Below are positions 25,727 through 47,011 of a DNA stretch of 64,000 bases, one piece after another. The DNA is from a virus. Taxonomy: Duplodnaviria > Caudoviricetes. Position 1 is the first letter of the stretch, and every line of letters begins with the position of its first letter. Where the stretch lies: IMG/VR virus record IMGVR_UViG_3300043567_000458; one strand, given 5' to 3'. The position numbers and the translations under genes are program-made. The notes beneath the pieces are model-generated. The model was not told where the DNA came from. It was given only the letters and a program-made list of their open reading frames with translations, and searched no databases.

Positions 25727-26437
25727 TTAGTCGAGTATATTAGTCTGCTGTTCTAAACTGAGTTCTTGATCTTCCAATTCACGGATCTTGTCTGTGATTT
25801 GATCTATCAGTCCTAGATTGCGCAGGATCTTAAACACCACATTTTCCACCGAGTATTCCCCAGCACGATCAAGCCCAGCTCGGCGCATGGTAGTAATCTT
25901 GTCTTTGACGGTTCTCAGCTTGTCGAGATCTTTTGACAGCAGAGCCTGTTCTATCTGCGAGAGCATGCTGTCTTTTTTAGCTTCCACTGCTTGATCGTCT
26001 AGATCAGGTTCTGTCTTCTGAGGCTTGAGAATCCATGTGTTATTGACCACGCTGTAGACACCTGTGCTGTGATGTGTTTCTGATTCACCTTGCACATAAC
26101 ATTCCACAGGCAGGCCTTTGACAGTGATATCATGGTATTCTGCCCACAGTGCCTTTTTTGCTGAAAACAGCTCTCTTTGTGCATCTGAGACTTCACCTTC
26201 AATGATCACATGTAGATCAAGGTCGCTGTATTTGCTCCAGGTATAATTGGCATTTGATCCAGTTATGGTGTAGTCTTTGACATCTAGATCTACACCCACA
26301 AAATCCACAAATGCACGAGCAATCTGCAAGAGTTTAAGACGAACTTCACCGTCCAGTCTCCCGCCTTGCCATAGCTTGGGATTCAGCTCTGAGTTTACCG
26401 TGACAAAATCTGTTTGGGAAAATTCTCGCAGTCGCAT
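25727..26437 (-). CDS. Pol-beta superfamily nucleotidyltransferase
   Basis: ITGS-NANY...SDLDLH (hGS...DxD) motif plus a third acid in VECY. Confidence 0.8.
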   Translation of the reverse strand: MRLREFSQTDFVTVNSELNPKLWQGGRLDGEVRLKLLQIARAFVDFVGVDLDVKDYTITGSNANYTWSKYSDLDLHVIIEGEVSDAQRELFSAKKALWAEYHDITVKGLPVECYVQGESETHHSTGVYSVVNNTWILKPQKTEPDLDDQAVEAKKDSMLSQIEQALLSKDLDKLRTVKDKITTMRRAGLDRAGEYSVENVVFKILRNLGLIDQITDKIRELEDQELSLEQQTNILD

Positions 26438-26801: not shown

Positions 26802-27041
26802 TTATTTAGCCCACATTAAGTGATAAGCTAATAGTGTTTGCTGATCGTAGAATTCTGCTACGAGCTTGAAATCGTCGTTGAGTTTATCTACAACTAACTG
26901 ACATTTTTCTTTGGGCTGTTTATTGATCCAATTTATTAGATCTACTCCTACAGTTTTATGTACTTTGGGCCAGTCTACTTCTATTATATCTTTACCGTTG
27001 CGTGTGTGCCAATGATAAAGTTCAAACCTACTACTCTTCAT
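26802..27041 (-). CDS. Hypothetical protein
   Basis: Overlaps the helicase end. Confidence 0.6.
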   Translation of the reverse strand: MKSSRFELYHWHTRNGKDIIEVDWPKVHKTVGVDLINWINKQPKEKCQLVVDKLNDDFKLVAEFYDQQTLLAYHLMWAK

Positions 27042-28488
27042 CTGTGTTCATGCTGTTTAATATTTCACGTAGTTTGGTGCTTTCTACCTGTGCTCGCACC
27101 TTGGGTTTATCTAGGCTGAATCCGTCTTTGGGTTCAGCACGTTCCCAACTAGGTTTGCTGTCACCGGGCTCTTCACGTGAAGTAAGTTCGGTCTTGCGTT
27201 TGATCTGTTCAATAATGCTGGATCCACCGCGTCCTGCGCCGTTGTGACTTTCTTGTTCATCTTCTGGAAGATCACTGATTCGCAGACTTTCAAGATTAAA
27301 CTCTAGATCAATCTTCATGCCCACGCCACTCGATGAGCGTGTCTTCATTAACTGTATTTGATAACGACCACGCTCACGCATGGCACGGCTTGTAAAGATA
27401 CCAAACACGTTATCCGCAGTTTGAATCTTTGACAAACCGCCTGAAATGTGACTGTGATCAAATTCAACTTCTTCAACAGCGCCTCGATTCAACTGTGCCG
27501 CGGTGACAAATACACAGTTCTTTTCTACTGCTAGGTTACGAAGTTCTTCTGACACATACTTGTCTTTGATAAACAAGTCTGCTGGACTAATTTTCTTGCT
27601 CACTGGCATCAACAAGTCCAAATAATCAACCAACAGCACATCGACTTTCTTGCCTACTTTGATTTCATATTCTTTCAAATATGCACGAATGTCGTTGGCA
27701 GTCTTGCCGCTAGGCATGTATTTGATCTGCAACATACCTGACTTCTTGCCAATCATTTTAACTTTCATTTCAACATCATCTAGCTCTTTGAAAATATCCT
27801 TGGTTGACGTTCCGGTGATCATTGCATCAATACGCATACTAACTAGTGCTTCTGAAAGTTCAAGAGTTAGGTATACCACATTTAATCCTGCCAATGCCCA
27901 GTTCACGCCTAGATTAGCCAAGAATAAGGATTTACCTGCACCTGACCCGCCTGCAAAGATGTTCAACTCTCCTCGATTCATTCCGCCAAACAGTTTACGA
28001 TCCATACAGGGCCATCCTGTGCTCACTTGACCGTTTTTGTCTTTGATGCCCATCAATCTTCCACGGGGATCAGCAAAATAGTCTGTGCCCATGTCTCGAG
28101 CAAGACCAATCTGCACAGCTTCTTTGATCAATACTTCTACTGCTCCGTAGTCATGTTTTTCTAATAAATCAGCACTTTCAATAATAGCACGTTCTAATGC
28201 CTTGTGTTGAGTGAACTTTTCGAATTCGTCCATGAACCAATCCATATGACCATCTTTGAGATCGTCGGGTCGTTTAAGTTCAGTTCTACAGGTGGCATTG
28301 ACCATTTCATAGTCTGGCAATACATTATAGCCCTTGGCATATTCATTTATGAATTCTGCTGCATCTTGTAGTTTGCGATCAAACAGGCTGTGATCAAAAA
28401 TACCTTGACATCGAACAAATACTTCTGCATCTGCCAGCATGAGTTCAAGATATAATTTTTGCACTTCGTAATCGTATGTTTTTATCAT
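27031..28488 (-). CDS. Replicative DnaB/gp41-like helicase
   Basis: GGSGAGKS Walker A, LELSE, LLVDYLDLL, TAAQLNR and KTR motifs. Confidence 0.93.
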   Translation of the reverse strand: MIKTYDYEVQKLYLELMLADAEVFVRCQGIFDHSLFDRKLQDAAEFINEYAKGYNVLPDYEMVNATCRTELKRPDDLKDGHMDWFMDEFEKFTQHKALERAIIESADLLEKHDYGAVEVLIKEAVQIGLARDMGTDYFADPRGRLMGIKDKNGQVSTGWPCMDRKLFGGMNRGELNIFAGGSGAGKSLFLANLGVNWALAGLNVVYLTLELSEALVSMRIDAMITGTSTKDIFKELDDVEMKVKMIGKKSGMLQIKYMPSGKTANDIRAYLKEYEIKVGKKVDVLLVDYLDLLMPVSKKISPADLFIKDKYVSEELRNLAVEKNCVFVTAAQLNRGAVEEVEFDHSHISGGLSKIQTADNVFGIFTSRAMRERGRYQIQLMKTRSSSGVGMKIDLEFNLESLRISDLPEDEQESHNGAGRGGSSIIEQIKRKTELTSREEPGDSKPSWERAEPKDGFSLDKPKVRAQVESTKLREILNSMNTDEE

Positions 28489-28505: not shown

Positions 28506-29975
28506 CTAGTTGAACACAGGTAAACCATGCAGTTGGGTCCAGCTTTCTGCATCAGCAGCATCATTAACCATAGGCTTGCCTTTGATGTTTAGGCTGGTAT
28601 TCAACAACATAGGACAACCAGTCTTTGCATACCAAAGCTCTAACAAGGCGCGGAACTGAGGATTATCAGTCTTATTAACCGTCTGCACACGGCTGGTATT
28701 GTCTAGATGCACTATGGCCGGAAAAGACTCAGATTTCAAACAAGGCGAAATATATTGCATGTAAGTCGTTGATTCTGTTGGCATTTTAAAGTACTGATTT
28801 GCGAATTCTTCTAATATTGCAGGAGCGAAGGGTCTGAACTGCTCACGATGCTTTATCTGGTTAATTGCGACCTTGATTTCCGAACCACGTGGATCGGCTA
28901 TCAAACTGCGGTTACCCAACGCTCTGGGCCCAAACTCTGCAGGGCCTCGAGCAAGACCACACATCTTGTATTCGAGTAAATGTGTCACGATATCTTCGTT
29001 GCTGGAGATATACCCCATGTCATATCCCAAATACGGACCAGTCCATTCTATGTGTTTTTTCTTATGTGCCAATACTGCACCAATACTGCTGCCACTGTCG
29101 CCGGGTGCAGGCATGATCCAAACTCGATCAAAATATTTGTAGGCTATGGGATTAGCTGCACAGTTTAGAGCGCAACCGCCCATCAACACTAGATTTCTAC
29201 TTGAACTAGATCTTACGGCCTGCTGCAACGCTCTCTCAAATGCCATTTCATACACAGCTTGTGTGGCTGCTGCTATATCGTAAAAATCTTGCTGTGTTGT
29301 TAATTCAGGTCGCCACCATGTGCATCCACGATGTAGATTTTGTTTGATCCTGTAAACATGCTCATAATCGTCATTGGGTAAACTAACAAAATCATCTAGT
29401 AGATCTCTGAGAAATCTTTTTGGATTTCCCAATGCTGCCATGCCCATTAAGATATATTCTTCTTCGTTGGGTTTTAGTCCGCAGCGTTGTGTCATTGCGG
29501 AATAAAACAATCCTAGACTATTTGGATATTCTAGACTATACCGTTTATGTAAGTTATTACCAACAGCATCCCATTGTGTTAGGCATTCAAATTCACCAAT
29601 GGCATCGATTACTAGCACACAGGCATTGTCAAATTCGCTGGTATAATATCCTGCGGCGGCATGTGTTTGATGATGTCCAAAAGTTTTGATTGGTGCTCGA
29701 ATGTTAAACTTTCTAAGATAATCTTTTACATTATTATTCTGCCATCCTTGCCCGGCAGTGAGCTGTCTTAGGGTTTTTAACCAAGGACGTTCATACCAAC
29801 ACACAAGATCAGGCTCGCCAAACGTTCGTGCATGATCTACTAGTTTTTGATCTAGATCGGCATCGTTTTTTATTCCGCTGAATCTTTCGCTTTCACTAGC
29901 GAAAATCAATTTGTCGTCTTCAAACACTGCTAATGCAGCGTTGTGACTAGCGGCAGAAATTCCCCAGGTAATCAT
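28506..29975 (-). CDS. Carbamoyltransferase (NodU/CmcH family)
   Basis: SERFSGIKND, HHQTHAAAG, DAIGE, GGCALN, PAPGDSG, EFGPRALGNRS, FRPFAP and LNTSLN motifs. Confidence 0.93.
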   Translation of the reverse strand: MITWGISAASHNAALAVFEDDKLIFASESERFSGIKNDADLDQKLVDHARTFGEPDLVCWYERPWLKTLRQLTAGQGWQNNNVKDYLRKFNIRAPIKTFGHHQTHAAAGYYTSEFDNACVLVIDAIGEFECLTQWDAVGNNLHKRYSLEYPNSLGLFYSAMTQRCGLKPNEEEYILMGMAALGNPKRFLRDLLDDFVSLPNDDYEHVYRIKQNLHRGCTWWRPELTTQQDFYDIAAATQAVYEMAFERALQQAVRSSSSRNLVLMGGCALNCAANPIAYKYFDRVWIMPAPGDSGSSIGAVLAHKKKHIEWTGPYLGYDMGYISSNEDIVTHLLEYKMCGLARGPAEFGPRALGNRSLIADPRGSEIKVAINQIKHREQFRPFAPAILEEFANQYFKMPTESTTYMQYISPCLKSESFPAIVHLDNTSRVQTVNKTDNPQFRALLELWYAKTGCPMLLNTSLNIKGKPMVNDAADAESWTQLHGLPVFN

Positions 29976-30088
29976 TTGTAGATAAAAGGATCACGTTTAC
30001 GTAGCTCTTTTAATCTACGTTTGAATCTTCGGTGTTCTTGATATCTGTTCCAAGGGTAGAGCAGAAAATCTATAATTTTTTTAAACAT
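29972..30088 (-). CDS. Small basic protein (38 aa; not in ORF track)
   Basis: Hand-translated MFKKIIDFLLYPWNRYQEHRRFKRRLKELRKRDPFIYK; overlaps both neighbours. Confidence 0.6.
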   Translation of the reverse strand: MFKKIIDFLLYPWNRYQEHRRFKRRLKELRKRDPFIYK

Positions 30089-31100
30089 TTTCTAACCTTT
30101 CTAATTTATGTTCTTGTTGTTTCTTGGCCATGTTAATTTTAATCTGTCCTTGTTGTGCTGTTTTTATTGCATCTACAAGCACAAATAACTTCCCATAACG
30201 ATATACTGCATCTGCTACATCTTTGACATCGGCATCCCAATTTGGTATAGCCACTGACCAACCAAGTTCTGCTGCACGATCATACAACACCAATCCTGCT
30301 CGATCTTGGTCTGGGATCACAATAACTTCTGCACCTAGACTGTTAATTATTCTACTTTGTTGTTCGGCAATCTCGTTGGTAAGAAGGGCTACACCGTCAA
30401 TGGCCAAGGCATCAAACGGGCCTTCACACACAAATATATACTTCTGATTTTCTTTTTGTTGATCAAAATTGAAAACAAAATGAGGATGCTGATCTGATAG
30501 ATATTTAGGTTTTCCGGCAGTTACTTTTCTTGCAGTATTACCTACAATACGTCCTTGCCACCTAAAGGGAATAATTACTCTATCAACATATCCTGGTGCG
30601 GGACTCCAGTAGAAGTTTTCGCTAGTGGGATCGTATCCTCTACTAACTACATATTCAACAACTTCTACTAACTTTTGCTCTTCTTCAGTAGTTAATTTAG
30701 CATCTAGCCATTCTAACAAAGGCATTGCACCCTCTGGTAATTGTTTGTCTGTGAATTCTAGCTTGATTTCCTGGTGTTCTGGGCGGTAATCATCGCCTTC
30801 TGTTCTCATGGCTTCGAACACTAGTTCTTTAATAGTGTCTTCGCTGGCGCCTAACCATCTGCACAGCGTTTTCATCTTTTCGCCTATGGTGCTACCAGGT
30901 TGCCACCCTGTGGTAAATTTGCAATTGAAACAGTTATAGATTACACCATCACCGTCAAATCTTATGCCGGCACGTTTGCGAGTATCAGGACTATGCCCTC
31001 GATGTTGACAGCAGGGTGCATTGAATGATGTCCATCCTGATGGGCTCGATTTAGCACGAGGTGGGAGCAGTGTTCGAAATTTATCAACGACAAGAGTCAT
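30081..31100 (-). CDS. DNA primase (DnaG/gp61-like)
   Basis: N-terminal Zn ribbon (APCC...CFNC); TOPRIM VCEGPFDAL and PDQD. Confidence 0.88.
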   Translation of the reverse strand: MTLVVDKFRTLLPPRAKSSPSGWTSFNAPCCQHRGHSPDTRKRAGIRFDGDGVIYNCFNCKFTTGWQPGSTIGEKMKTLCRWLGASEDTIKELVFEAMRTEGDDYRPEHQEIKLEFTDKQLPEGAMPLLEWLDAKLTTEEEQKLVEVVEYVVSRGYDPTSENFYWSPAPGYVDRVIIPFRWQGRIVGNTARKVTAGKPKYLSDQHPHFVFNFDQQKENQKYIFVCEGPFDALAIDGVALLTNEIAEQQSRIINSLGAEVIVIPDQDRAGLVLYDRAAELGWSVAIPNWDADVKDVADAVYRYGKLFVLVDAIKTAQQGQIKINMAKKQQEHKLERLENV

Positions 31101-32226: not shown

Positions 32227-32598
32227 ATGAGAATAACAACTAACCTACAAGAAAATTTTCCCTTTATCAGTGTTATAGTGCATGTTAACCATGAATATGT
32301 GGGCATCATTATTAACCAAGATGCTCAAGTCACTAGTATGTATGACTATTCTATGATAAAAACAGACGAGGAAAAACAGCGATTTCTAGAACTAGGCGAA
32401 GCCTGGTGGTGGGAGTCGAACAGGCAAATTCCTATCAACATTTTCTTGGCCAGAGAAATCATTGAATTTCGATACGTAATTAGAAATTTTTCAACTAAAG
32501 ATGTCAAACTCATGCACGGTCCCTGCACTAGTTTAAATGACATTATTGTCAAACGAATCAAGCGTAAGTCGATTACTCTAGTTAGAAAGATCGGTTAA
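32227..32598 (+). CDS. Conserved hypothetical protein
   Basis: 123 aa (WWWESNR.IPINIFL); TATAAATA at 32170-32177. Confidence 0.75.
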   Translation: MRITTNLQENFPFISVIVHVNHEYVGIIINQDAQVTSMYDYSMIKTDEEKQRFLELGEAWWWESNRQIPINIFLAREIIEFRYVIRNFSTKDVKLMHGPCTSLNDIIVKRIKRKSITLVRKIG

Positions 32599-33343
32599 CT
32601 TGTTTTTCTAATAATTTTTTTATATCGGGATTCTTTTTCCAAGGACCTGTTAGAGACCAAATCTTAGAATCTTGCTTTTTAGTTACAAAATTTTCTAAAT
32701 TGCACAAATTAAAAAAATCGTGTTCTTGAGTTATTAGTTCCGACATGCAGACCTGATCTAATCCATACATATTCGCTCTTTGCAGTTTTTCCATATTTTC
32801 GGTAATAGTTTCAAACGGAATATGTTGAATTTTTTCGTTGTATAAATTTACAATATTTTTTATAAAGTTTTTTCTTTTGTCAGTAACATAAAGAAAATTA
32901 GCTCCGGTTTTCTTCCACAAAGTATCATACTGTGGATAATATAGAATACCCAACTCTACGCTATTGTCAAAATTTATTCTTTCATTAAAAATAATATCTG
33001 CGTCTACTATGTATGCTTTAGAAATTAAATTTTGTTCGAACAATAGATTAGAAATAAAATATCTCGAACAAAAATAATAACTTTTTAGTTTATAAAAATT
33101 AATATTTGTAGTTGTTAACTTCTCTTTACTAATTGAAAGATCGATTGATAATTTTAAATTTTTAATTTGCTCAAGTAGTAAATCGGAAGGATTTATTAAA
33201 TGTAAATGAACGTCGTGACCGTGATTGTCGCAAGAAAATAAATTATAAATTCCATAATTTATAAAATAATTCTCATCACATTGAAAAATTACTTTTTCTC
33301 TACCGTTTGGTCTAGAAATTAATTCTACATCTTGAAAAAACAT
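32582..33343 (-). CDS. Putative GT-A fold glycosyltransferase
   Basis: DVHLHLINP, CSRY, IVDADII (DxD) and GLDQ motifs; paralogue of 35767..36450; very AT-rich. Confidence 0.6.
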   Translation of the reverse strand: MFFQDVELISRPNGREKVIFQCDENYFINYGIYNLFSCDNHGHDVHLHLINPSDLLLEQIKNLKLSIDLSISKEKLTTTNINFYKLKSYYFCSRYFISNLLFEQNLISKAYIVDADIIFNERINFDNSVELGILYYPQYDTLWKKTGANFLYVTDKRKNFIKNIVNLYNEKIQHIPFETITENMEKLQRANMYGLDQVCMSELITQEHDFFNLCNLENFVTKKQDSKIWSLTGPWKKNPDIKKLLEKQVNRSF

Positions 33344-33921
33344 TAACTATACCCGTAACTGATCTGCTCACAGATCAAATTCATCTGCACCACAATAGCT
33401 ACAGCATAGGCAGTGGCATGCGATTGTTTGAAGAAATATTCTTCATTGTCGGGTTTCGTCCAAACTTCCGTCATCACCGTGGTCCATTCTTTCCCAATCA
33501 GATAACGTTTCGCTGGTCGGATCATCGCTAAAACGGCTGCTAGTTGTTCGATAGATTTTGGTTCCATCTTTCTTAGTATAGATCCATGACCGTTCACATG
33601 AAACAGATTCTGGATAAACTCTTCGTCTTGTAGTAGATCCCATAATGGCTCAGTCTCCATGAGTTGAATAAGGTGCGCCTCATCTCGAACACCTTTGTAA
33701 ATGCCAACATTTAAAAAATCAATCTTGAAATATTCTTCGGCTGCTGCATGATCGTATGGTATACTGCACACAGCTTTCTCAGCATTCATTGGAACACTAT
33801 GTAAATACACACCGGTGTTGTGTTTGGTCAGAGTTTCGTTGTCAACACGGCTGGCTGGCACATGCTTGAATAACTTTAGAGCATGGGCTCTGTCTACAAA
33901 GTCTATGTCGATATCAGGCAT
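33343..33921 (-). CDS. Miniature DNA polymerase III alpha (DnaE)-like protein
   Basis: PDIDIDF, FKIDFL, LAAVLAMIRP and FKQSHATAYA match C-family polymerase motifs in only 192 aa. Confidence 0.75.
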   Translation of the reverse strand: MPDIDIDFVDRAHALKLFKHVPASRVDNETLTKHNTGVYLHSVPMNAEKAVCSIPYDHAAAEEYFKIDFLNVGIYKGVRDEAHLIQLMETEPLWDLLQDEEFIQNLFHVNGHGSILRKMEPKSIEQLAAVLAMIRPAKRYLIGKEWTTVMTEVWTKPDNEEYFFKQSHATAYAVAIVVQMNLICEQISYGYS

Positions 33922-34126: not shown

Positions 34127-34323
34127 TACTGCATCCTTGTTGTTTCGAATAGCAACAACGGAAGTGTCTCTGCTAAAAATGCTGCATATTCTTCTGCAGA
34201 TTCTTCATCTGCAAAGTTTGAAAATTTAACATATACACAGTGTTCACTATCTTCTTCTGTAGTCATTACTTCTATATCTATGTCATCACTAGAAATTAAT
34301 TCTTGTTTGTTTTCTTCAGTCAC
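34126..34323 (-). CDS. Small acidic protein
   Basis: Coupled at both ends. Confidence 0.65.
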   Translation of the reverse strand: MTEENKQELISSDDIDIEVMTTEEDSEHCVYVKFSNFADEESAEEYAAFLAETLPLLLFETTRMQ

Positions 34324-35003
34324 AGTATTTTGGCCTCCTTGATGACATCTTTTACTAATTCATGATCTGCTGGCAGAGCTTTAAATCTACGCAACCAAAA
34401 CTGAGGATCTATCATAGGCCCGATGATTTCTAATTGTTCATCGTTCATGCGGGTCAACATTTCTTTGCCTGATCGAGTATTCAATATCATCCAAGGACTT
34501 ACTAATCCTTCTTTGATATCATGAGTGGCTCTGTTTAGATTTACATAGGCAAAATAATGTTCCCATGCTGCAGAGTTTGATTCCGCCCATGACATCATGG
34601 TCATGATACTGCGTTGTATGGCACCATCAGCAGGCTCTACTTTGATTAAATCTGCGATATAGCTTTGATACAATTCATCTCTGCACCAATGATCTAGTTT
34701 AACTCCGCTCTTGACCACGTAGTCTACAAATCGCTCAGGATATATAGGCGCTGTATTAACCAAGAAACTGCCAAATTTCACAAAGGCTGTATAGAAACTA
34801 GAAGTGGCAAACTCTTCAAAGGTCTTGGGCTGTTGTGCTTTTTGTGTGAGCTGATAGAATCTTTGGAATGTCAACAATCCCATTAGCACATGTTTTTCAT
34901 TGCGGCTAAGATGGCGACGCTTTTGTTCACAAATATGCACTACCAAAGTTTTTTCTTTGGCAAATAATTTATTGCAATGTTCGCACTTAAAATTTAATTG
35001 CAT
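34320..35003 (-). CDS. C2H2 zinc-finger-containing protein
   Basis: FKCEHCNKLF...LVVHIC motif; start 35003 chosen (track 35084). Confidence 0.7.
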   Translation of the reverse strand: MQLNFKCEHCNKLFAKEKTLVVHICEQKRRHLSRNEKHVLMGLLTFQRFYQLTQKAQQPKTFEEFATSSFYTAFVKFGSFLVNTAPIYPERFVDYVVKSGVKLDHWCRDELYQSYIADLIKVEPADGAIQRSIMTMMSWAESNSAAWEHYFAYVNLNRATHDIKEGLVSPWMILNTRSGKEMLTRMNDEQLEIIGPMIDPQFWLRRFKALPADHELVKDVIKEAKIL

Positions 35004-35466
35004 TGACTTCTTTTTTGTCCCATCCAAGGGTTTGACAATAGTCTTTGATTTCTCGATCTGTAGTGATGGCTGCAAGTGTAGCAATGTCTGCCCTTTTCAT
35101 AGTTGGAAATATCGTGGCAAGAAATTCTTCTTTCCTGTTCTTTTCTTTTTTCAGAGGAATCCATTCATGAAACTGTTTGGCTTTAGATTCGTGACTGCAA
35201 GCCACTAATGTCAGCCATTGCAGTTTAGGGTGTTGGCTAATGTTGGCCCAGTTTTTGTTGTAGTATTGATTTACAGTGAGCAGATAGTGTTCTTGTATTT
35301 CTCTATCAGAGCCCGATACACTGCTGATATATCTGTTGAGATTCCACAGATCTCCTTTGATTTCTTTTCGGCCTTCTTCTGTGGCAGCGTCCCAGAGTTC
35401 TTTGATTCCCTGATCAACACAGGGTATGATATCTTTGAATAGATCTACGTGTTTATTTTTGGCCAT
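34987..35466 (-). CDS. Possible clamp-loader small subunit (gp62-like)
   Basis: Size and LNRYIS...VN..YN...HPKLQWL pattern recalled from gp62-like proteins. Confidence 0.45.
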   Translation of the reverse strand: MAKNKHVDLFKDIIPCVDQGIKELWDAATEEGRKEIKGDLWNLNRYISSVSGSDREIQEHYLLTVNQYYNKNWANISQHPKLQWLTLVACSHESKAKQFHEWIPLKKEKNRKEEFLATIFPTMKRADIATLAAITTDREIKDYCQTLGWDKKEVNAIKF

Positions 35467-35766: not shown

Positions 35767-36450
35767 TTATACCTGCGAATTATAAAAATTTAATAAGTTT
35801 ACATACTGTTCGTTTTCATGTTTTCTAGATCCTTTAGCAGTCCATATCATTCGTTCGGGGGTCATTTTTGTACCGGTCCATTCAGAACTTAATCGAGGTA
35901 TTGATTTTTCTATCATCATAGCATCTAATATATCTTGATCTAAAAACCAATAAATGTTTCCTTGTTTGAAACTTTCTTGTAATCTAGTGCTATAAGTATT
36001 TCTAAAATCATCATCTCCAAACGATATTGCACTGGCTAACGATTTGCCACCTTTTCTAATAGTAATTTTACTAATGTTAGTTGCCTCTAAAAATTTAATT
36101 AATGGAATTGTTTTATTGGCAATCACATCACAATCAAAACTTATAATTTTTGCAGCTGGATCAAATATTTCCGGAATTCGTATAAATCGAATGCAGGCAC
36201 ATAGGGTATTAAATTCTTTATCATCAACATCTAGTAATTCGTTGGTGTAACTTATATTTTTTTGAGAACACCATTCTAGTTGTTTGTCTGTTGGATTATA
36301 CAAGTGAACATGAACTTTTGCCCACGGCGCATGTTGTAGTAAACTTAAGGCCAGTGCTTTACCATATAGATCAAAATATTTTGAATCTGCCGCAAAATAA
36401 AAAAAGTTACCCGTTAATCGAGCCGGTATATTCAAAGAAGGAAGAATCAT
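35767..36450 (-). CDS. Putative GT-A fold glycosyltransferase
   Basis: HVHLYNP, CIRF, SFDCDV (DxD) and WFLDQ motifs. Confidence 0.6.
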   Translation of the reverse strand: MILPSLNIPARLTGNFFYFAADSKYFDLYGKALALSLLQHAPWAKVHVHLYNPTDKQLEWCSQKNISYTNELLDVDDKEFNTLCACIRFIRIPEIFDPAAKIISFDCDVIANKTIPLIKFLEATNISKITIRKGGKSLASAISFGDDDFRNTYSTRLQESFKQGNIYWFLDQDILDAMMIEKSIPRLSSEWTGTKMTPERMIWTAKGSRKHENEQYVNLLNFYNSQV

Positions 36451-37262
36451 AGATTTTTTAATTCAATAAGCATTTGATCGTAATCGGAAATATTAAACTC
36501 TAATAATTTACGTGTGTCAATTAAGATTTTGTTTACGGGCTTTGGACCTTGTGTTTGTATAATGGTTTTGTTAAGAGCAAATATATCGTTTATTTTACAC
36601 AACAAGTCATATTTGTTAATCTTATTATCATTGTTAACAAGATGATACACTCCCGTAATTACCGGAGTTTGCATGTATTGATCAATGCATTTTGCCAACT
36701 GTAAGGTAGTGATGCCGTTCCACCAAGCATTGTTCCATCCTTGCAATTCACTTGCAGAATTATTGACAATCCAATTAAAGAGTCCTGTGCCATTTGATTT
36801 TATTTCAGGTCCGATGATACTCATTCTAAAAGTAACGTCTTTATCGTTGTTAATTTCACCTAGAGATTTCGACTTGCCATACAAGTTAGTTTCGGTGTGT
36901 GTATCTAATTCAACATAGTTTCCTTTCTTGCCATCAAACACACAATCAGTTGATAAGTGAACCACTCGTGTTTTGCTTTTTAAAAAGGTATGTTCTAAAA
37001 AGTGTGGAAACCAACCATTGATCAATGCAGCACGATCCGGACGATCGTTACTATCTTTAACTAACAATCCCACACAATTGATCACAAAGTCAAAAATATT
37101 TGTAACTTCACCGAGGCGTTGTATTTCTGCAAAATTCTCAACATCTATAATAAGATCTGCATTAGATCTTGCCAGTGTGCTTACATCGTGGCCTTGTTGT
37201 TTGAGATATCGAGTGATAACATGACCGGCCATACCGTTACTGCCAACTACTAAGATTTTCAT
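36447..37262 (-). CDS. RmlD-like SDR nucleotide-sugar 4-reductase (WbvR-type)
   Basis: GSNGMAG, VINCVG, HLSTDCVFDG and YGKSK motifs. Confidence 0.88.
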   Translation of the reverse strand: MKILVVGSNGMAGHVITRYLKQQGHDVSTLARSNADLIIDVENFAEIQRLGEVTNIFDFVINCVGLLVKDSNDRPDRAALINGWFPHFLEHTFLKSKTRVVHLSTDCVFDGKKGNYVELDTHTETNLYGKSKSLGEINNDKDVTFRMSIIGPEIKSNGTGLFNWIVNNSASELQGWNNAWWNGITTLQLAKCIDQYMQTPVITGVYHLVNNDNKINKYDLLCKINDIFALNKTIIQTQGPKPVNKILIDTRKLLEFNISDYDQMLIELKNL

Positions 37263-38251
37263 ATAAAATTGCCTTTCTTAAGCATTTCTTTAATGGCATT
37301 GCGTTGCATAATAAATGTTTTAGAACTAAACTCTTCTTCTGAAAACTTCTCTAAGCTGCTATACTTGTCTATTAATGTTTGTTTAGGATTAAATGGTAGT
37401 ATCACAAAATATGCATCGTCATATTTGTATGACATTACTGCTTCGTGTTTTGATATCAGCATCTCATCTAATTTTTCACCGGGTTTACTCCCCATCTCTG
37501 TAATTTCTGCATCGCCGTAGACATCTATCAAAATGTCTGCGATATCTTTGATGTATGCCGCTGGCATATTCATTACAAATGTTTCACCACCTATACTTTC
37601 TTCGGCAGCTTTAAATAGTAAACCAATAGCTTCTTCGAGTGTTAAGAAGAATCGAGTCATTCTTAGATCAGTGATAGTAACCGGTCCACCGTTACGGATC
37701 TGTTCTATAAAGTATGGAATAACACTGCCATTAGATCCCATAACATTGCCTCCACGTACACAGACAAATCTAGTATGATCGGTTAGATCGTTGGCTTGAA
37801 TAATCAACTTTTCACCCACAGCTTTAGTCATTCCGTATAAGTTCAATGGCTCAACTGCCTTGTCGGTGGATACATCGATGACTTTTTTAACACGATTTTC
37901 AATCGCAGCATTAACAACATTTGTTGTACCTATTACATTTGTTTTAATAGCTTCCTGAGGTTGATCTTCGCAGATAGGTACGTGTTTAAGAGCAGCCATG
38001 TGAAAAATATAATCAACATTCTTAGTAGCAAACTTAACTGCTTCGTAGTCTCTAACATCTCCTATGATGTATTTGATATTGAGATTTTTAAACTTACGTT
38101 GCATTAATACCTGCTGAAGTTCACCTCTTGAAAAAATAATAATTTCTTTAGGGTTGTGTTTTTCAAGCATTAATCGAGTCAGTGTTTGCCCCCACGAGCC
38201 AGTGCCGCCTGTAATTAAAATTCGTGCGTTGTCAAAAATACTATCATTCAT
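37259..38251 (-). CDS. UDP-GlcNAc 4,6-dehydratase/epimerase (FnlA/PseB/CapD-type)
   Basis: ITGGTGSWG, GDVRD, HMAALKHVP, STDKA, YGMTK and RGGNVMGSNGSV motifs. Confidence 0.9.
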   Translation of the reverse strand: MNDSIFDNARILITGGTGSWGQTLTRLMLEKHNPKEIIIFSRGELQQVLMQRKFKNLNIKYIIGDVRDYEAVKFATKNVDYIFHMAALKHVPICEDQPQEAIKTNVIGTTNVVNAAIENRVKKVIDVSTDKAVEPLNLYGMTKAVGEKLIIQANDLTDHTRFVCVRGGNVMGSNGSVIPYFIEQIRNGGPVTITDLRMTRFFLTLEEAIGLLFKAAEESIGGETFVMNMPAAYIKDIADILIDVYGDAEITEMGSKPGEKLDEMLISKHEAVMSYKYDDAYFVILPFNPKQTLIDKYSSLEKFSEEEFSSKTFIMQRNAIKEMLKKGNFI

Positions 38252-39002
38252 ATTTTACTCCGATGTCATCTGGGTTGTGGAATAATGCTCTATGTTTGTT
38301 ATCCAAAGATTCCACTTCCTCTGCAGGTCTTGTATTTGTATAGTAATACAAAATTAATGATCTACGACTTCTATCTTCGGGGCATTTTAACGGAGTAGGA
38401 TGACCGTGAAAACTAAAATCGTCAGTTCTAAATACAACCAGTCTGTTAAGTAATGGACTAATTTTATCAACGCATACTCCTGGTTTGTTGTCGGGGGTTC
38501 TAGACCACATTTCTAAATGGCCTCCCCATTCTTCTTGCCAATTATCGTTTAAGTATAGGATAACATTTAATCTTCTGTGTACTCCCATTAGATCGTGCCA
38601 GTTGCCGTCTGCGTGTACTGCTAGTGTGCCGCCTGTATTGATCTGGTTAAATCCGCCGCCTGTTAGATAGGGATCAGGAATAAGCCCATTAATTCCAGTT
38701 AGCTTAGATAAGAATCTTAAAAATGTTCCACCATTTAAAAAATTAATTAAATCCAATGTGTTAGCAGGAACATCACTATCGTCTTTCCAATCACTACGCC
38801 ATTTAATTTGAATCTTATCGTGATTACGCTTGTCCCAACTTTCAAAATTTTCATTGTTGAAGTCAGTTAGTGTTTCATTAATAACTTTTTCTGTAAAAAA
38901 ATCATCTATAGCAATATAGTTAAACGGTTGCTTAGATTGAAATTCGTTAGAAAGATCTTCTAGATCAAATTTGTCAAATTCTACATATTTCTTTTTCATC
39001 AA
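38244..39002 (-). CDS. 2OG-Fe(II) oxygenase (prolyl-hydroxylase-like)
   Basis: HAD (HxD), RRLNVILYLN, GGHLEMW, distal HGH and RRS motifs. Confidence 0.85.
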   Translation of the reverse strand: MMKKKYVEFDKFDLEDLSNEFQSKQPFNYIAIDDFFTEKVINETLTDFNNENFESWDKRNHDKIQIKWRSDWKDDSDVPANTLDLINFLNGGTFLRFLSKLTGINGLIPDPYLTGGGFNQINTGGTLAVHADGNWHDLMGVHRRLNVILYLNDNWQEEWGGHLEMWSRTPDNKPGVCVDKISPLLNRLVVFRTDDFSFHGHPTPLKCPEDRSRRSLILYYYTNTRPAEEVESLDNKHRALFHNPDDIGVKYE

Positions 39003-39008
39003 TTGTCC

Positions 39009-40082
39009 TTAGTTCGACAGTAGTATGTTAACAACTACGTCTGATACATTATTTTGATTGTACTCTTCAGGTATTTTCCAGTTCCTGTCAGCTGACTTCA
39101 TTCTGTTAAAGCAGGCAACAATATTTTCTTTATCCAAGCCGCTAATTACGTTAGAGCCGCACCAAACTGTTTCTGGTCTTTCTGTTGTATCTCTAATGGT
39201 AATTGTTGGTATACCGAATAAACACATTTCTTCTTGAACCGTTCCTGAATCGCTAATTGCCATATGTGCATTTTTTTCTAAGTTGACAAAATCAAAAAAC
39301 CCCAAAGGTTCCGTTATTATAATGTTTGGATTATCAACTAAAATATTAAACTTTGCTAATTTTTGTTTGGTTCTAGGATGACAACTAAACACTATCTTAT
39401 ATTCTTTAGATATTTCTTCAAAACTTTCAAAAATATTAATCAACCGATCGTTAACATCAACATTTTCTGCTCGATGCGCTGTGGCTATAATGTAGTTATT
39501 TTTTTCAAGATTAAGTGCTGATAATATAGGAGAACTGTCTATTTCATTTGCATAAAAATCTATTACTTCTTTAATTGGATTCCCCGTGACAAATACTTTG
39601 TTGTTTGCAGCACCTTCACGCAATAAATTTTGACGGCTTAACTCAGTATAAGGTAAATTTATACTAGACACGGCATCAATAATTTTTCTATTCTTTTCTT
39701 CAGGAACTTTAAGATCATAACAACGATTGCCAGCTTCCATATGATAGACCGGAATGCCTAATCTTTCACATATAATTGCTGCTAGGCCTGAATTGGTGTC
39801 GCCCAATATCAAAACTTTATCAGGCTTAAATTCGTTTACAAATTTTTCAACACCTACAAATGTATTACCAATTTGTTCTGCAAAGGATACAGATTTATTG
39901 TCAATTACATAATCTGGGTTTCTTAAACTCAATTCTTTGAAGAATACATCATTTAAATTTTTATCATAATTTTGACCGGTATGCAATATTTTATGATCAA
40001 CAATGTTATCAAGTTTAGGAATAATTCTAGATAGTCTTATAATCTCAGGTCTTGTTCCTAAAATTGTTAGAACCTTAGTCAT
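39009..40082 (-). CDS. Non-hydrolysing UDP-HexNAc 2-epimerase (FnlC/Cap5G/WbvD-type)
   Basis: GTRPEIIRL, HTGQNYD, LGDTNS, HMEAGNR, HRAENVD and SDSGTVQEE motifs. Confidence 0.92.
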   Translation of the reverse strand: MTKVLTILGTRPEIIRLSRIIPKLDNIVDHKILHTGQNYDKNLNDVFFKELSLRNPDYVIDNKSVSFAEQIGNTFVGVEKFVNEFKPDKVLILGDTNSGLAAIICERLGIPVYHMEAGNRCYDLKVPEEKNRKIIDAVSSINLPYTELSRQNLLREGAANNKVFVTGNPIKEVIDFYANEIDSSPILSALNLEKNNYIIATAHRAENVDVNDRLINIFESFEEISKEYKIVFSCHPRTKQKLAKFNILVDNPNIIITEPLGFFDFVNLEKNAHMAISDSGTVQEEMCLFGIPTITIRDTTERPETVWCGSNVISGLDKENIVACFNRMKSADRNWKIPEEYNQNNVSDVVVNILLSN

Positions 40083-40608
40083 TTGGAAATACCCCAACAA
40101 AATAATGGCAAAGACTAGGTAAGTCTAATGGTGTCCAGTCTGTAAAATCTTCTTTATGCCAAAGACTTTTATGTATGTCAAAAGTATTACCATAGCACCA
40201 TAATCTTGGATCATTTACATTTTTATGATTATCATCCCAAATTTCTTCTAACGGAGTCAATAATACAATTTTTTTAGTGGTAAGAGTTTTCACAGAATCT
40301 AAAAGACGAATGCCTGCATCTTTATCAAGGTGTTCGATAAAATCTATCATTAAAACATAATCAAATTTCTCACCGCCTAATAAGGTGTTTAGATCAACAG
40401 TTTCTAGGTCTGCTACAAAATCTGGATTCACTGACTCCCATGCATCAATTGTGATAATTTTGCTACATCTGTCTTTAAATGGATCTGAATATAATTTCGG
40501 ACCGCATCCGAGATCTAAAATAGAATCTCCTTCTTTAACAACGGAGTGTAGATATCTCATTAGCTCGTCGTTCGATGAAGCTCGTTTTCCGTTTATATTG
40601 TGTTTCAT
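40075..40608 (-). CDS. Class I SAM-dependent methyltransferase
   Basis: ILDLGCG and DFIEHL motifs. Confidence 0.85.
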   Translation of the reverse strand: MKHNINGKRASSNDELMRYLHSVVKEGDSILDLGCGPKLYSDPFKDRCSKIITIDAWESVNPDFVADLETVDLNTLLGGEKFDYVLMIDFIEHLDKDAGIRLLDSVKTLTTKKIVLLTPLEEIWDDNHKNVNDPRLWCYGNTFDIHKSLWHKEDFTDWTPLDLPSLCHYFVGVFPND

Positions 40609-41375
40609 TTAATATTGTCCTTATTATTAGCTCTAATAGTGGGGGGAACAGATGCTTGCAATTTGGCAAGTAATTGTTGATTATTAACAGTTGCTGGCGG
40701 CGCCAGCGGGTTATTATACATTTTAGGGTGCCATTGATGTATAACATACGGTGCTTCAACAAACGTTACATTTAATTTTTTATTTTTAATTCTTTGTAAA
40801 AATTCGTCGTCATCATAACTATGACCGAAAGCAAATTCTTCGTCAAAACCATTTAATTCACACAAGTTCTTCCTAGTAATTGCCGAGGTATAGTGATATC
40901 CCACTGGATGGTGAACACTATGATTAACCCATTTTGTTTTACTAGATTTTGTTCCGCCTACATCTATTGTACCGCCTTGATGTAGAATTCTTACATCGCC
41001 TTTGTTACATGCCCAGCAATGAAAGGTTAGATAATTGTCATCAGTTAATGTTTGATTCACATATGAGATTACATCGCCTTGATGACAGCACTCTGGATTT
41101 TGAATAATAATTTTGTCACCAGAACTTTCACGGAATCCAACATTATACGGCACACAGGGATTAAACCAAGTCTTAGATCCTCGATCTGACATTTTAATTA
41201 TTTTAATATTCAGCGACGGAAATTCACTAGGAACAGTATCTAAACTGTTTTCTAAATTGCTAAAATCATCTACAATTATTACTTCAAAGTCTTTTTCCCG
41301 ACTTTGAATAAATGTTTTTAGAGTATGTCTTAATAATTCTAATCGATTATAATATGCCATTACTATTGATATCAT
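40605..41375 (-). CDS. Glycosyltransferase family 2-like
   Basis: ISIVMAYYNR, IIVDD, NVG and GFDE...YDDDEF motifs. Confidence 0.88.
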   Translation of the reverse strand: MISIVMAYYNRLELLRHTLKTFIQSREKDFEVIIVDDFSNLENSLDTVPSEFPSLNIKIIKMSDRGSKTWFNPCVPYNVGFRESSGDKIIIQNPECCHQGDVISYVNQTLTDDNYLTFHCWACNKGDVRILHQGGTIDVGGTKSSKTKWVNHSVHHPVGYHYTSAITRKNLCELNGFDEEFAFGHSYDDDEFLQRIKNKKLNVTFVEAPYVIHQWHPKMYNNPLAPPATVNNQQLLAKLQASVPPTIRANNKDNIK

Positions 41376-41971
41376 GATAGTTTTACCTCAGCCATTATAT
41401 ATTTGTTTCGTTGATTAATCACATTAACAATTTCTACGCCGTCTTCTTGCTCGGGCATATTAGTCTTTTTGTATATCACTCGCAAATCCATTATAATTCT
41501 CGTATTTGCATGTGAATGTTTTAATATCAAATCTTTATAAGTGTTTACAGGATAGTGAAAACCACAAGACACCCACGACGTAATCAAATCAAATTTAACA
41601 TCTTCTGGAATATTAATATTATTGCAATCAATTAAATGATATTTTTTAGTGCCTAATTTTTTTAATTCTGCGTCTACCTCTGACAATGGATGATAGAATA
41701 AGAAATCGTTAGCTGTCTTATTATATTTTCCAGTTGATGCTTCGGGAGATTTAGAGTCGTTATCTTTAGTATCGCCGTCTAACAACCACAGCTCGGAATT
41801 ATATTTTTCATTGAACATTCTCGATTCCCAAGCAAGCCCGCAGCCAATATCTAAAATCTTCATTGGTGCGCTGCCTAAGAATTTATCTAGAATTTCAAAA
41901 TTTTCTTTCTTGTGGCTTTGATATAATTCTGTTTCCCAGAGCCCGCCACTGCCTAACCACTGTTTTGTCAT
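41372..41971 (-). CDS. Class I SAM-dependent methyltransferase
   Basis: ILDIGCG and FDLITSW motifs. Confidence 0.8.
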   Translation of the reverse strand: MTKQWLGSGGLWETELYQSHKKENFEILDKFLGSAPMKILDIGCGLAWESRMFNEKYNSELWLLDGDTKDNDSKSPEASTGKYNKTANDFLFYHPLSEVDAELKKLGTKKYHLIDCNNINIPEDVKFDLITSWVSCGFHYPVNTYKDLILKHSHANTRIIMDLRVIYKKTNMPEQEDGVEIVNVINQRNKYIMAEVKLS

Positions 41972-42312
41972 TTTGAATACCCCACAGTTTCACGCTCAAT
42001 GTCATCGTGATCAAATTCTGCCCAATATAATTCAAATGCTACACAGTCTGTGACTGCTTCAAATTGATGATATTCGCCCGGAGCAACCTTTGTATATTCG
42101 CCTGCCTTTAACAAAGTTTCGTCTACGAGATCATAATTGCCTTTCCATACACGAATAATCATTTCACCGGACTCGACAAAGAATCCATTCCACTTGTATT
42201 TGTGTTTATGCTTAGAACATACTCCACCGGCGTTGGCTTCAATACGATGAAATTCTAATACACCGTTGGCTTCTAACAATTCTGTCTGTCCCCATACTTT
42301 TCCTGCTTTCAT
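41968..42312 (-). CDS. Cupin (sugar isomerase-like) protein
   Basis: KVWG, HKH...F.V.SG and PGEYHQF motifs; AAGGAG RBS; TAAATA upstream. Confidence 0.8.
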   Translation of the reverse strand: MKAGKVWGQTELLEANGVLEFHRIEANAGGVCSKHKHKYKWNGFFVESGEMIIRVWKGNYDLVDETLLKAGEYTKVAPGEYHQFEAVTDCVAFELYWAEFDHDDIERETVGYSK

Positions 42313-42338
42313 GCTATCTCCTTAATGTGTGTATTTAA

Positions 42339-42845
42339 TCAGATCAATTTATGTAATTGCAAAACTTCGCTTTGTCTTGAAACTTCTTTGACAAAGAACA
42401 CGCAAGGTGGATTGACCTCCTCGCTGAGCGGCACAGTTAATAATTGTCCGTTTTTCATCTTAGGAAAATACCAACGCACATCCTGATAGATATTAACAAT
42501 TTCTATAGGCATATATTCTGCTCTAAAGCCTTTGATCGGATTAAACACTAGTGCGTCAAATCCACGCTCATTGATACTAGTCAACGGTAACACTTCGGGA
42601 TCAAGCCCACAATCTTTGTCACCTACTACCATGCACCAATCCAAAGGCATTTGCACTTCATAGCCTCCTATGTTCAGCACTATAGCCGGTGAATTAAACG
42701 ATTCTAAAAATATCAAAGGCATGAAATAAAAATCTGGATCCTGTGGATTTGAATTATCCAGCACCGAAAATCTTGTATCTTCGTCTACTTGATCCGGCAA
42801 TTCGTTTAGATCAAATGCTTCATTGTTTAGTGTGAGTATTCTCAT
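42339..42845 (-). CDS. Conserved hypothetical protein, possible degenerate Hint fold
   Basis: 168-aa beta-rich protein near UvsW. Confidence 0.6.
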   Translation of the reverse strand: MRILTLNNEAFDLNELPDQVDEDTRFSVLDNSNPQDPDFYFMPLIFLESFNSPAIVLNIGGYEVQMPLDWCMVVGDKDCGLDPEVLPLTSINERGFDALVFNPIKGFRAEYMPIEIVNIYQDVRWYFPKMKNGQLLTVPLSEEVNPPCVFFVKEVSRQSEVLQLHKLI

Positions 42846-43483
42846 TTTAATTTTCCTAGTATTACGTTTCGGTGATCAGCATCCCATGCTAAAATGTCAT
42901 AGTTAAAATTGATCTTACAGAAATCAATTGCTCTAGTATCACTGTTTTCTTGTTCTACAACCAACAGAGGATTGTATTTTTTAATGGTGTTAACTGCACC
43001 TTGTAAAACATTTAATTCGTATCCGTCTACATCAATTTTAATATAATCAATATCTGAAAAATTAAATTCATCTATAGTGTATAGCTGTTCATCATACCAC
43101 TTTTCTTGCGGTACTTTTCCAGCAGTTATACTTCCACCACCGCTTACCTTTATAATTTTATGTTCTTCACCCAACGCACATTTAAAATGTGTAATTTTAG
43201 ATAGGTCAACATTTTTATGAAATAATTTTCTTCTTCGATAATCAAAACAAAAAACATGATTAAAATCTTTGTGAAGATATCTTGTATATTCGCCGTCTCT
43301 ACAACCAACATCTATAGCATTTCTTTTTTCTGTAATAAAAGGAAGACTAGCTACCCACGTTTTTTTACAATGGTGATTAGGGAATTCTTGTGTGCCATCT
43401 GGGCTAAAGAAAAAATCAGTATCGTAAAAATCCCAGTTAAATGTGTTTTCAGAAAACTGAGTAGGTTCAAGAGGATGTATCAT
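42842..43483 (-). CDS. FkbM-family methyltransferase
   Basis: AIDVGCRDG and IDYIKIDVDGYE..VLQGA motifs. Confidence 0.85.
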   Translation of the reverse strand: MIHPLEPTQFSENTFNWDFYDTDFFFSPDGTQEFPNHHCKKTWVASLPFITEKRNAIDVGCRDGEYTRYLHKDFNHVFCFDYRRRKLFHKNVDLSKITHFKCALGEEHKIIKVSGGGSITAGKVPQEKWYDEQLYTIDEFNFSDIDYIKIDVDGYELNVLQGAVNTIKKYNPLLVVEQENSDTRAIDFCKINFNYDILAWDADHRNVILGKLK

Positions 43484-44973
43484 ATATTAACCTTGGTAAT
43501 GGTAAAGGGGTATTTGGCCTCTTTATAAAACTTTTTTCTTTCTGTTAGGTGCCGCTTGGCATATTTGCAGGTGCTGGTAATATCCCAGATCTCTACGTGA
43601 TCTTTGTCTTCTGCTTTTCTAATGCCTCGCCCAATGCTTTGTATAACACGGACAAAGCTCTTTCCGGGTTCAAGAAGAACCAAATTAAAAATACGTGGAA
43701 TATTAATACCCACAGCGGCCACACCATAAGTCGCCAAAATAATCTTGCCATCACTTGTTTTAATTTCATCATATTCTTCCTTGCGATCATCGAGTTTCAT
43801 ACCGCCGCTGACAAACACTGCCTCTGGTATTAAGTCAATTAATTTTTTTCCTGTATCGATTCTGTTAATTAACACCAGAGTATTACCGGTAGCAGATAAC
43901 GCAGTGATCTTACCGGCGATCCATTGTAGCCGATTATCGTCTGTGACAAGAAATGAGTATTCGTCCTGGAATGAATTAAACACCTGCACATCTGTGGTCT
44001 GTAACACATTGATATTCAATTGTGCTAACACACCTTTTTCCTGTAAATCATACGCAGATACTTGATTTATCACAGGACCTATACTGGCCAATATACCTTG
44101 AAACTCCCACTGTTCTTTAGGCACAGTTCCGGTGAGTCCCCAGCGTATGGCACAGTTACGAAAGTTTTGTGTCAGTAGTTTGGTCAATACTTCTGCCTTG
44201 GCTTGATGCACTTCGTCAACAATGATCGCGCAGACTCCTTCACAGAATTCTGCCAATGTCATGGTGTCGTTGTCATAGCTTTTCTTGTCTAACACATTCA
44301 AACTTTGCCAGGTGCATATGGTATGTGTCTTACCTAATTCTTTTCTATCTCCGAAGTAAACACCAACATCCAGGCCTAGGTTCTTGTAATCTTCTTCAGT
44401 TTGAACCACCAACGATTTATTAGGAACAACTACCATTGTGCGACCATAAGGTTCGCATAGATGGCTTAAAGTTGCTGTGGTAATTGTTTTTCCAGCACCA
44501 GTGGCTACTTCTTGCAAGGCCTGAGGATTCTCTAAAAACTTGTTGATTACCTCATACTGATAGTCTCTTAGAACAATAGGTTCTCCTGCCTGTTGATGTC
44601 CTTTGGGCCAGACTTTGCCTTTGTCGGCCCAGTAATTTTCATCGATAGCAGCAAATTTTAATTCCTGATGCGGTCTAAGATCTTCGACTTCGATGTCATA
44701 ACCTTCATCATCAATTACTGCTAGAATCACATCAAGGTGTGCAAGATATCCACTGCCGCCAATGTTAAAATAAGTTTTAGTTCCGTCCCAACGTCCTAGT
44801 TTATAGGCCGGCATGTGTCGGGCATAAGGTAAATCGAACTTTAATTTATTGACAATTTTCCGTCGTGTTTCAACTCGTAGCCCTTCTACCTTGATGTTTA
44901 CTTCGTCTTTGATTGTTAACTTACAGTTCAACAATTTTTTGTCCTTTGGTTTCTGTTGGTCTAGTATCACCAA
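43480..44973 (-). CDS. uvsW: SF2 DNA helicase, UvsW-like
   Basis: LRDYQ, ATGAGKT, DEVH, GLTGT and QSIGRGIR motifs; true start may be TTG near 44931. Confidence 0.9.
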   Translation of the reverse strand: MVILDQQKPKDKKLLNCKLTIKDEVNIKVEGLRVETRRKIVNKLKFDLPYARHMPAYKLGRWDGTKTYFNIGGSGYLAHLDVILAVIDDEGYDIEVEDLRPHQELKFAAIDENYWADKGKVWPKGHQQAGEPIVLRDYQYEVINKFLENPQALQEVATGAGKTITTATLSHLCEPYGRTMVVVPNKSLVVQTEEDYKNLGLDVGVYFGDRKELGKTHTICTWQSLNVLDKKSYDNDTMTLAEFCEGVCAIIVDEVHQAKAEVLTKLLTQNFRNCAIRWGLTGTVPKEQWEFQGILASIGPVINQVSAYDLQEKGVLAQLNINVLQTTDVQVFNSFQDEYSFLVTDDNRLQWIAGKITALSATGNTLVLINRIDTGKKLIDLIPEAVFVSGGMKLDDRKEEYDEIKTSDGKIILATYGVAAVGINIPRIFNLVLLEPGKSFVRVIQSIGRGIRKAEDKDHVEIWDITSTCKYAKRHLTERKKFYKEAKYPFTITKVNI

Positions 44974-46105: not shown

Positions 46106-46111
46106 TATTCA

Positions 46112-46140
46112 AGTATACAGCCTTGATTTCTGGTTGTCAA
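46112..46140 (-). promoter_or_regulatory. sigma70-type promoter of the UvsW operon
   Basis: Minus strand TTGACA-N17-TATACT; the -35 box overlaps the TGA stop of the upstream gene. Confidence 0.8.
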
Positions 46141-46961
46141 CTGAATAATCTAGAAATTGGTATGCCTTGACGTATTTCGTCCACGGTCCACTCGGTGTGA
46201 CATAGTTTTAAAAACCATTCAGTTCTGTCTGGCACATAGGGACTGTCTAATTCTGACCATTTGATGCTGAGATCTGCAGCTAGACTAGACGAATCACACA
46301 TTATAGGAACACCATTTATGGCTGCTTGAATAGCTGGTCCGCTGTTATGGTTGATCACGCAATGATAATTGTAAAAAATATCAAAACTGTCATAGGTATC
46401 GGGTATAAGCACGGGTCTTTCTACCTCCACCCCAGATTGCTTGAACGGAAATGCTGACCGAGGATGATATCTCACACGGATTCTTCTATGAGTATGTTGT
46501 TTTATTTTTCCAATGGTGTCTGCTACCCAGTCTTTCATGGCAGGCATTCCTTGCCATTGTAGACTTTCTTGATGTTGGCAGGCTATTAATATTTCGCCAC
46601 GACGTGTGGTGGCAATTGGCTGCAATTTAACACCTAATTTTTCAGGTCTAGTTGGATCGAGATTGATATCGTTGCCGAATCTGCCAAGATTGTTGATATG
46701 GTCGAGACTGATGCGCCAAGTTTCGCCTCTTTTCAGATTTCCTACTTCTATGATCATCACAGATTTGCCTGATTGTCGACACTGTTCGTAGATTGTTTTA
46801 TTTGAACGCATTCTACCGGCCCATAGCACAGACCAAATCACAGACACGTCTTCGTTGTCATGCACAATGGTATGCCCTAGTTGTTTTAAACCTTGTTCTA
46901 GAGCGTCAAACACAGGAGGACTGTTTAACGCACCGTATTCTCGATATAATTTGAAGCGCAT
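46137..46961 (-). CDS. GT-B / KpsS-like (capsule synthesis) glycosyltransferase paralogue 1
   Basis: ILIACQ, VRYHP and VINHNSGPAIQAAINGVP motifs. Confidence 0.6.
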   Translation of the reverse strand: MRFKLYREYGALNSPPVFDALEQGLKQLGHTIVHDNEDVSVIWSVLWAGRMRSNKTIYEQCRQSGKSVMIIEVGNLKRGETWRISLDHINNLGRFGNDINLDPTRPEKLGVKLQPIATTRRGEILIACQHQESLQWQGMPAMKDWVADTIGKIKQHTHRRIRVRYHPRSAFPFKQSGVEVERPVLIPDTYDSFDIFYNYHCVINHNSGPAIQAAINGVPIMCDSSSLAADLSIKWSELDSPYVPDRTEWFLKLCHTEWTVDEIRQGIPISRLFS

Positions 46962-47007: not shown

Positions 47008-47011
47008 GATC

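Follow-up and report, generated by a model that had tools for sequence, protein, structure and literature searches.

The locus described here raises two questions: what use a large group of T4-type jumbo phages, which also carry a family B replicase, has for a miniature polymerase of the bacterial type, and whether the core of a C-family polymerase can work without a thumb and an index finger. The gene lies in a 64,000-nucleotide stretch of DNA (the window) from an uncultured lake phage. An earlier note on this DNA had read the motifs PDIDIDF, KIDFL, LAMIRP, and FKQSHATAYA, in that order, in a 192-aa ORF; all four are present as described, and HNTGV was found in addition (Table 1). Iyer et al. 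(2021), working from sequence, describe group 2.2 jumbo phages in which a minimal Pol III alpha is split over distant genes, with an NTP-binding N-protein, a Mg- and template-binding C-protein, and a family B polymerase alongside; the roles they propose are synthesis of one strand or repair (PMC7824862). The 192-aa protein is the C-half of this split minimal Pol III alpha of RaK2/PA5oct/Atu_ph07-like (group 2.2) phages. It is 35 to 51% identical to the RaK2, PA5oct, Atu_ph07, and Phosso proteins, shares their gene order, and shows no substantive difference from the group 2.2 system, in which the Mg-binding C-half is likewise on its own gene. New here beyond the work of Iyer et al. are natural fusions of the two halves, a residue map, and a model of the complex; the fusions, the exact break point, and the lost arginines described below are not mentioned in the accessible part of their article.

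Table 1. Positions of the C-half, its motifs, its neighbors, and the natural fusions (window coordinates unless a locus handle precedes them)
Feature	Position	Strand	Remarks
C-half of split minimal Pol III alpha	33343..33921	-	192 aa; equivalent to E. coli alpha 399-784 minus thumb and index finger
PDIDIDF (residues 2-8)	33898..33918	-	D3 = D401, D5 = D403 (100/100); D7 = D405 (98/100)
HNTGVY (HNTGV, 34-38), palm strand past deleted thumb	33805..33822	-	H34 = H511 (99/100), G37 = G514 (98/100)
KIDFL (66-70)	33712..33726	-	K66 = K553; D68 = D555, third catalytic Asp; both 100/100
LAMIRP (131-136), then index-finger deletion	33514..33531	-	R135 = R639 (99/100), P136 = P640 (100/100)
FKQSHATAY (in FKQSHATAYA, 164-173)	33406..33432	-	E. 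coli F756-Y764; H168 = H760, Y172 = Y764
Two small upstream ORFs, 65 and 70 aa	33914..34323	-	60/87 and 28/87 loci; 70-aa ORF overlaps C-half start by 8 bases
227-aa protein, C2H2-type zinc finger, PHROG 11058	34320..35003	-	Fixed neighbor, 79/80 loci; also in RaK2
159-aa protein, PHROG 11758, candidate gp62-like clamp-loader small subunit	34987..35466	-	76/78 loci
253-aa inserted gene (GT-like)	32582..33343	-	2/75 loci; overlaps C-half stop by one base
Small convergent gene, PHROG 11637	32227..32598	+	71/72 loci; also beside fused genes
gp61-like Toprim primase	30081..31100	-	Zinc-ribbon cysteines, CEG and DxD acidic motifs; 59/60 loci
gp41/DnaB-like helicase	27031..28488	-	47/48 loci
P0213, fusion	L101:1066-2193		375 aa; residues 1-180 match N-half, 189-375 match C-half
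P0273, N+C fusion	L103:1827-2957, also L104
P0274, N+C fusion	L102:519-1649

The 192-aa gene is a real gene under strong conservation and not a pseudogene. Its ORF runs intact from ATG to TAA with no internal stop. An alternative in-frame ATG lies 12 codons upstream of 33921, and homologues carry 0 to 17 residues ahead of D3; since the first ATG precedes the first Asp by 0 or 1 codons in every one of the 80 viral loci, whose products are 188 to 193 aa long, 33921 is the true start. The family, which corresponds to PHROG 11778 (E = 4e-64), includes at least 7,985 sequence clusters matching at E ≤ 0.001. Across 100 homologues of 30 to 91% identity, D3, D5, K66, D68, and P136 are invariant, and D7, H34, G37, R135, and H168 are kept in 98 to 99%. 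The dN/dS ratio, a check that the earlier note had suggested, is 0.05 to 0.09 against 12 relatives, as expected under purifying selection. An aromatic tail, considered as a possible clamp-binding tail, is frequent at the C terminus in the lake clade; matches from cultured phages mostly end ahead of it. A scan for promoters performed at chance level (36 found versus 27.3 ± 5.8 expected).

Thumb and finger segments had been reported missing, and the spacing of conserved residues confirms this. D405 and H511 are 106 aa apart in E. coli alpha and 24 to 33 aa apart in the C-half family; for R639 and H760 the values are 121 and 31 to 46 aa. About 79 residues are thus absent between the D405 and H511 equivalents, a gap assigned to the thumb from its domain limits, and about 88 residues, the index finger including R709 and R710, are absent between the P640 and H760 equivalents. 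Basic residues special to the C-half family are K138 and K165, the latter basic in 99 of 100 homologues and corresponding to N757 in E. coli. Residue 166 (33424-33426, minus strand) is Gln here, as in 3 of 100 homologues, while 94 of 100 have Lys or Arg (K758 in E. coli).

A PDB search with the single 192-aa sequence gave no match; a profile search matched Pol III alpha structures (E = 2.4e-5). Comparison of a structural model (pLDDT 94.6) with known folds gave the outcome anticipated for a DnaE palm. The seven top matches are all C-family polymerases, with 182 to 188 of the 192 residues aligned; they include PolC of G. kaustophilus (3f2b; Z = 9.5, rmsd 3.3, 186 aa), DnaE1 (5lew; Z = 8.9), and E. 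coli alpha 401-784 (Z = 7.6). The best unrelated structure scored Z = 4.1, and Foldseek agreed with the C-family ranking. Like DnaE and PolC (E. coli 5m1s, M. tuberculosis 5lew, T. aquaticus 2hpi, and G. kaustophilus 3f2b), the protein has a Pol-beta-like palm with three catalytic aspartates, and K553, H511, R639-P640, and the FxKSH motif of bacterial Pol III alpha are kept. In contrast with the bacterial enzyme, which has about 1,160 aa on one chain, the phage version has about 350 aa over two chains, lacks the PHP, thumb, index finger, HhH, clamp-binding, and OB regions, and has lost R390, R396, R709, and R710. Because PHP, thumb, full fingers, HhH, and OB domains are all absent from the C-half, it is not a replicative DnaE; it may act like a DnaE core.

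As the earlier note had stated, no complementary DnaE fragment lies in the window: the 64,000 nucleotides gave no N-half match, no further DnaE motif, and no other Pol III domain, and family B polymerase is likewise not in the window. The same protein, and 12.6 kb of DNA identical to the window, occur on a 269,771-bp metagenome contig. Together with the T4-type genes of the window listed below, this marks the phage as a jumbo phage with a T4-type replisome, and the DNA stretch is also present in lake-water sequencing runs. N-halves from lake contigs were compared by identity and cluster, and none could be linked to the 269,771-bp contig. The setting becomes clear from relatives. Matches were found in 96 phage records of RaK2-, PA5oct-, Atu_ph07-, and XacN1-like jumbo phages, in which a fused N+C query hit 188 places, about two in each. 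The N-half of relatives is its own gene of 153 to 189 aa (PHROG 11127) and carries GRGSS; PF07733 detects it as an ORF of its own in Phosso, in RaK2, and on five contigs of lake phages. Nine relatives, of which the closest has a C-half 74% identical to that of the window, carry it on a separate, distant gene; the two genes are 34 kb apart in RaK2, 147 to 186 kb in lake phages, and 224 kb in Phosso. Two near-complete genomes carry both halves. Family B polymerase is present in 8 of 10 related records, and the two lacking one are incomplete. PHP and HHH_6 were not found in five relatives, four of them complete or near-complete, although controls were detected. Two cultured phages and two near-complete virus genomes each combine N-half, C-half, and family B polymerase, and PHP and HHH_6 gave no match in any of them. 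A distant N-half gene, a family B polymerase, and no other Pol III domains are features of the group 2.2 system. Among lake phages, N-halves come in a short form of 153 to 159 aa (L086, L089, L090, and L186-L231) and a long form of 162 to 189 aa (L085, L088, and L106-L185); the closest relatives of the window with both genes have the short form. Downstream of the N-half are genes that, read by eye, resemble GroES and the RFC/gp44 clamp-loader ATPase; the latter gene, judged by its beginning, is a few genes away.

The break between the halves is precise. On E. coli alpha, the profile of the N-half covers residues 320-392, ending nine residues short of D401; the N-half stops 36 codons past the WG motif, at the FERFL equivalent, in 81 of 83 loci. 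In the intein-split DnaE of cyanobacteria, DnaE is also encoded by two distant genes. Unlike that system, the phage halves have no intein at either end and have lost most domains; with the C-half starting at a catalytic motif and the N-half stopping at the FERFL equivalent, an intein would not fit, and the chains cannot be spliced.

Three natural N+C fusions of 375 to 376 aa were found on four contigs from four assemblies: P0213 and two more, P0273 and P0274, that are 78 to 81% identical. They were retrieved from a 50% library, and the contigs that carry them are short; only one is long enough to show what lies beyond the fused gene, and there the convergent PHROG 11637 gene and the structural gene come next, as at the C-half locus. 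Viral and metagenome contigs and cultured phages were scanned and yielded no further fusions. Another candidate, P0122 (350 aa), has the last 110 residues of the C-half behind an unrelated N terminus on a 2-kb contig and is probably an assembly chimera. The linker of the fusions is three residues longer than that of E. coli and unlike it in sequence. The fusion model (pLDDT 82, with residues 1-80 uncertain) covers E. coli alpha 270-773 and matches DnaE1 5lew with Z = 21.4 (rmsd 3.1, 286 aa), compared with about 9 for the C-half alone. In a C-half tree, a quick version without an outgroup, the fusions form one clade (SH-aLRT 100) within two supported branches (95 and 97) of stand-alone proteins, which suggests that they arose by recent re-fusion of split halves. 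Iyer et al. put forward the split form as a model of the Pol III ancestor (PMC7824862); as the fusions look like recent re-fusion, they show no ancestral unsplit state. Use of these single-chain proteins (P0213, P0273, and P0274) would spare two-subunit reconstitution and so simplify a test of activity.

To model the complex, a cognate N/C pair from one contig was used, with a C-half 74% identical to the 192-aa protein. The pair reached an ipSAE of 0.92, with 0.00 for the best control; at least 76% of contacts recurred between runs, and partner pLDDT was at least 76. The mark for a complex is reached by 58 of 80 solved pairs and 2 of 110 mismatched pairs. In the model, the WGVGRGSS stretch of the N-half packs onto the aspartate strand. 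This score supports but does not prove binding, since halves of a split gene may pass by their likeness to solved DnaE. Homology, fusions, and model together make it very likely that the C-half and N-half form a heterodimer, and the 192-aa protein probably does not work alone. Among the options raised earlier, that of one subunit of a split polymerase is supported by the distant N-half gene in relatives, the natural fusions, and the published arrangement.

In the proposed enzyme, three metal-binding aspartates, together with the remaining palm and a shortened finger, would come from the C-half, and the GRGSS loop for binding the incoming nucleotide would come from the separately encoded N-subunit; the two would assemble into a catalytic core without an intein. 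Since thumb, PHP, HhH, clamp-binding, and OB domains are all missing, this core would be distributive and without proofreading. Distributive synthesis is also what one would predict from PolC, in which the thumb and duplex-binding domain give most of the DNA contacts (PMC9224347). Most likely, the enzyme would be a helper to the family B replicase at the fork, making short DNA on RNA primers or filling short gaps, although its role is the least certain part of the reading. We would give this reading as a whole an even chance; with the heterodimer granted, the role at the fork would again be about evenly balanced. It is favored by gene order, the place of the C-half being fixed between the gp62-like gene and the primase-helicase and the N-half lying a few genes from the RFC/gp44-like gene, and by a precedent: DnaE of B. 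subtilis extends primers for PolC (PMC3664799). Both cases would pair a C-family enzyme with a second main replicase and a link to primase and helicase. The B. subtilis DnaE, in contrast, is a full-length single chain with a C-family partner (PMC3664799), and the link in the phages is by gene order only. Our literature search found no paper testing a split minimal Pol III alpha experimentally. Against the helper reading count the altered nucleotide-contacting arginines described below, which leave use of ordinary dNTPs unassured, and a search for the N-half of this phage that did not locate it. T4 itself is not known to need such a helper polymerase.

The same heterodimer may instead be a repair or recombination polymerase that works off the normal fork, extending invading 3′ ends or bypassing damaged or modified bases. 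This is a reading of some weight, though we think it unlikely. The window encodes gp41, gp61, gp32, uvsW, uvsX, uvsY, and a T4-type terminase; with uvsW, uvsX, uvsY, and SSB in the same region, the place of the gene in a T4-type core would suit recombination as well. By analogy, an active site left open by the lack of a thumb recalls the Y-family design (PMC9224347), and repair is an option named by Iyer et al. (PMC7824862). However, there is no repair gene among the fixed neighbors, and the near-universal retention of both halves, together with a dN/dS below 0.1, looks more like a core function.

A further reading keeps the heterodimer but gives it a different reaction: it would be a Pol-beta-type nucleotidyltransferase that does not copy a template and instead makes primers, adds nucleotides untemplated, or uses another acceptor. 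Arginines of E. coli alpha that contact the nucleotide include R390, R709, and R710 (PMC4374717). The R390 position is E or D in 83 of 83 N-halves, R709 and R710 fall inside the deletion, and R396 lies in the missing linker; R362, G363, and S364 are conserved. Use of ordinary dNTPs is therefore not assured, and these losses, with the family's own basic K138 and K165, keep other nucleotidyl transfer in play. The loss of the duplex-gripping thumb, the basic residue at the N757 position, and a likeness of the bare fold to minimal nucleotidyltransferases at low Z (3 to 4) point the same way. Against this stand the kept equivalents of K553, H760, Y764, and R639-P640, strong structural matches to C-family polymerases only, and a primase with catalytic motifs as a fixed neighbor, so that we consider this reading improbable. 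The broader idea that the core of about 350 residues carries out chemistry other than that of Pol III (making primers, adding nucleotides without a template, or copying modified templates) that is essential in these phages is similarly a long shot; if true, the 375-aa fusion would be a C-family enzyme of very small size on a single chain and could serve directly as a reagent.

It is very doubtful that the 192-aa protein acts alone as a minimal enzyme, one of the suggestions of the earlier note. All three aspartates are present, the C-half alone is modelled with confidence, and the window has no N-half; yet the GRGS nucleotide-binding loop is on the other gene, and the halves co-occur, fuse in nature, and share a large modelled interface. 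Least probable of all is that the gene is what remains of a dnaE that decayed or lost catalysis: most of Pol III alpha is indeed absent, but the 80 loci, with products of 188 to 193 aa, have no stops or frameshifts of the kind that a decayed full-length gene would leave, and the invariant aspartates and the dN/dS of 0.05 to 0.09 rule out decay.

Gene order around the C-half is the same in Phosso and RaK2, and a structural gene is also a fixed neighbor (67 of 68 loci). The convergent PHROG 11637 gene is a candidate partner of the C-half. A gp62-like neighbor had been proposed, and the gene is indeed conserved; its identity as gp62 is a lead from an Atlas cluster with PF16790 on 13% of members, and the gene itself has no Pfam or PDB match. 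The finger of the 227-aa neighbor resembles C2H2-type fingers of eukaryotic transcription factors; a likeness of this protein to gp59 was unsupported when checked. The GT-like gene matched no family, and its rarity beside the C-half makes it incidental, which leaves the suggestion of a nucleotide-modifying enzyme unsupported.

Between primase and helicase lies a carbamoyltransferase gene (28506-29975, minus strand) in 42 of 52 loci, and its 37 to 92% identity suggests repeated exchange. A second, unrelated Pol-beta-type nucleotidyltransferase (PF01909 above the cutoff) is encoded at 25727-26437 (minus strand). About 17 kb of sugar, epimerase, methyltransferase, and glycosyltransferase-like genes surround uvsW (35767-53243, minus strand, and 47356-49163, plus strand), an insertion within the replication core that differs in content among relatives. 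At 10357-12759 (plus strand), a MoxR-like AAA ATPase is followed by a metallopeptidase-vWA protein, a pair that Iyer et al. list for group 2.2 phages (PMC7824862).
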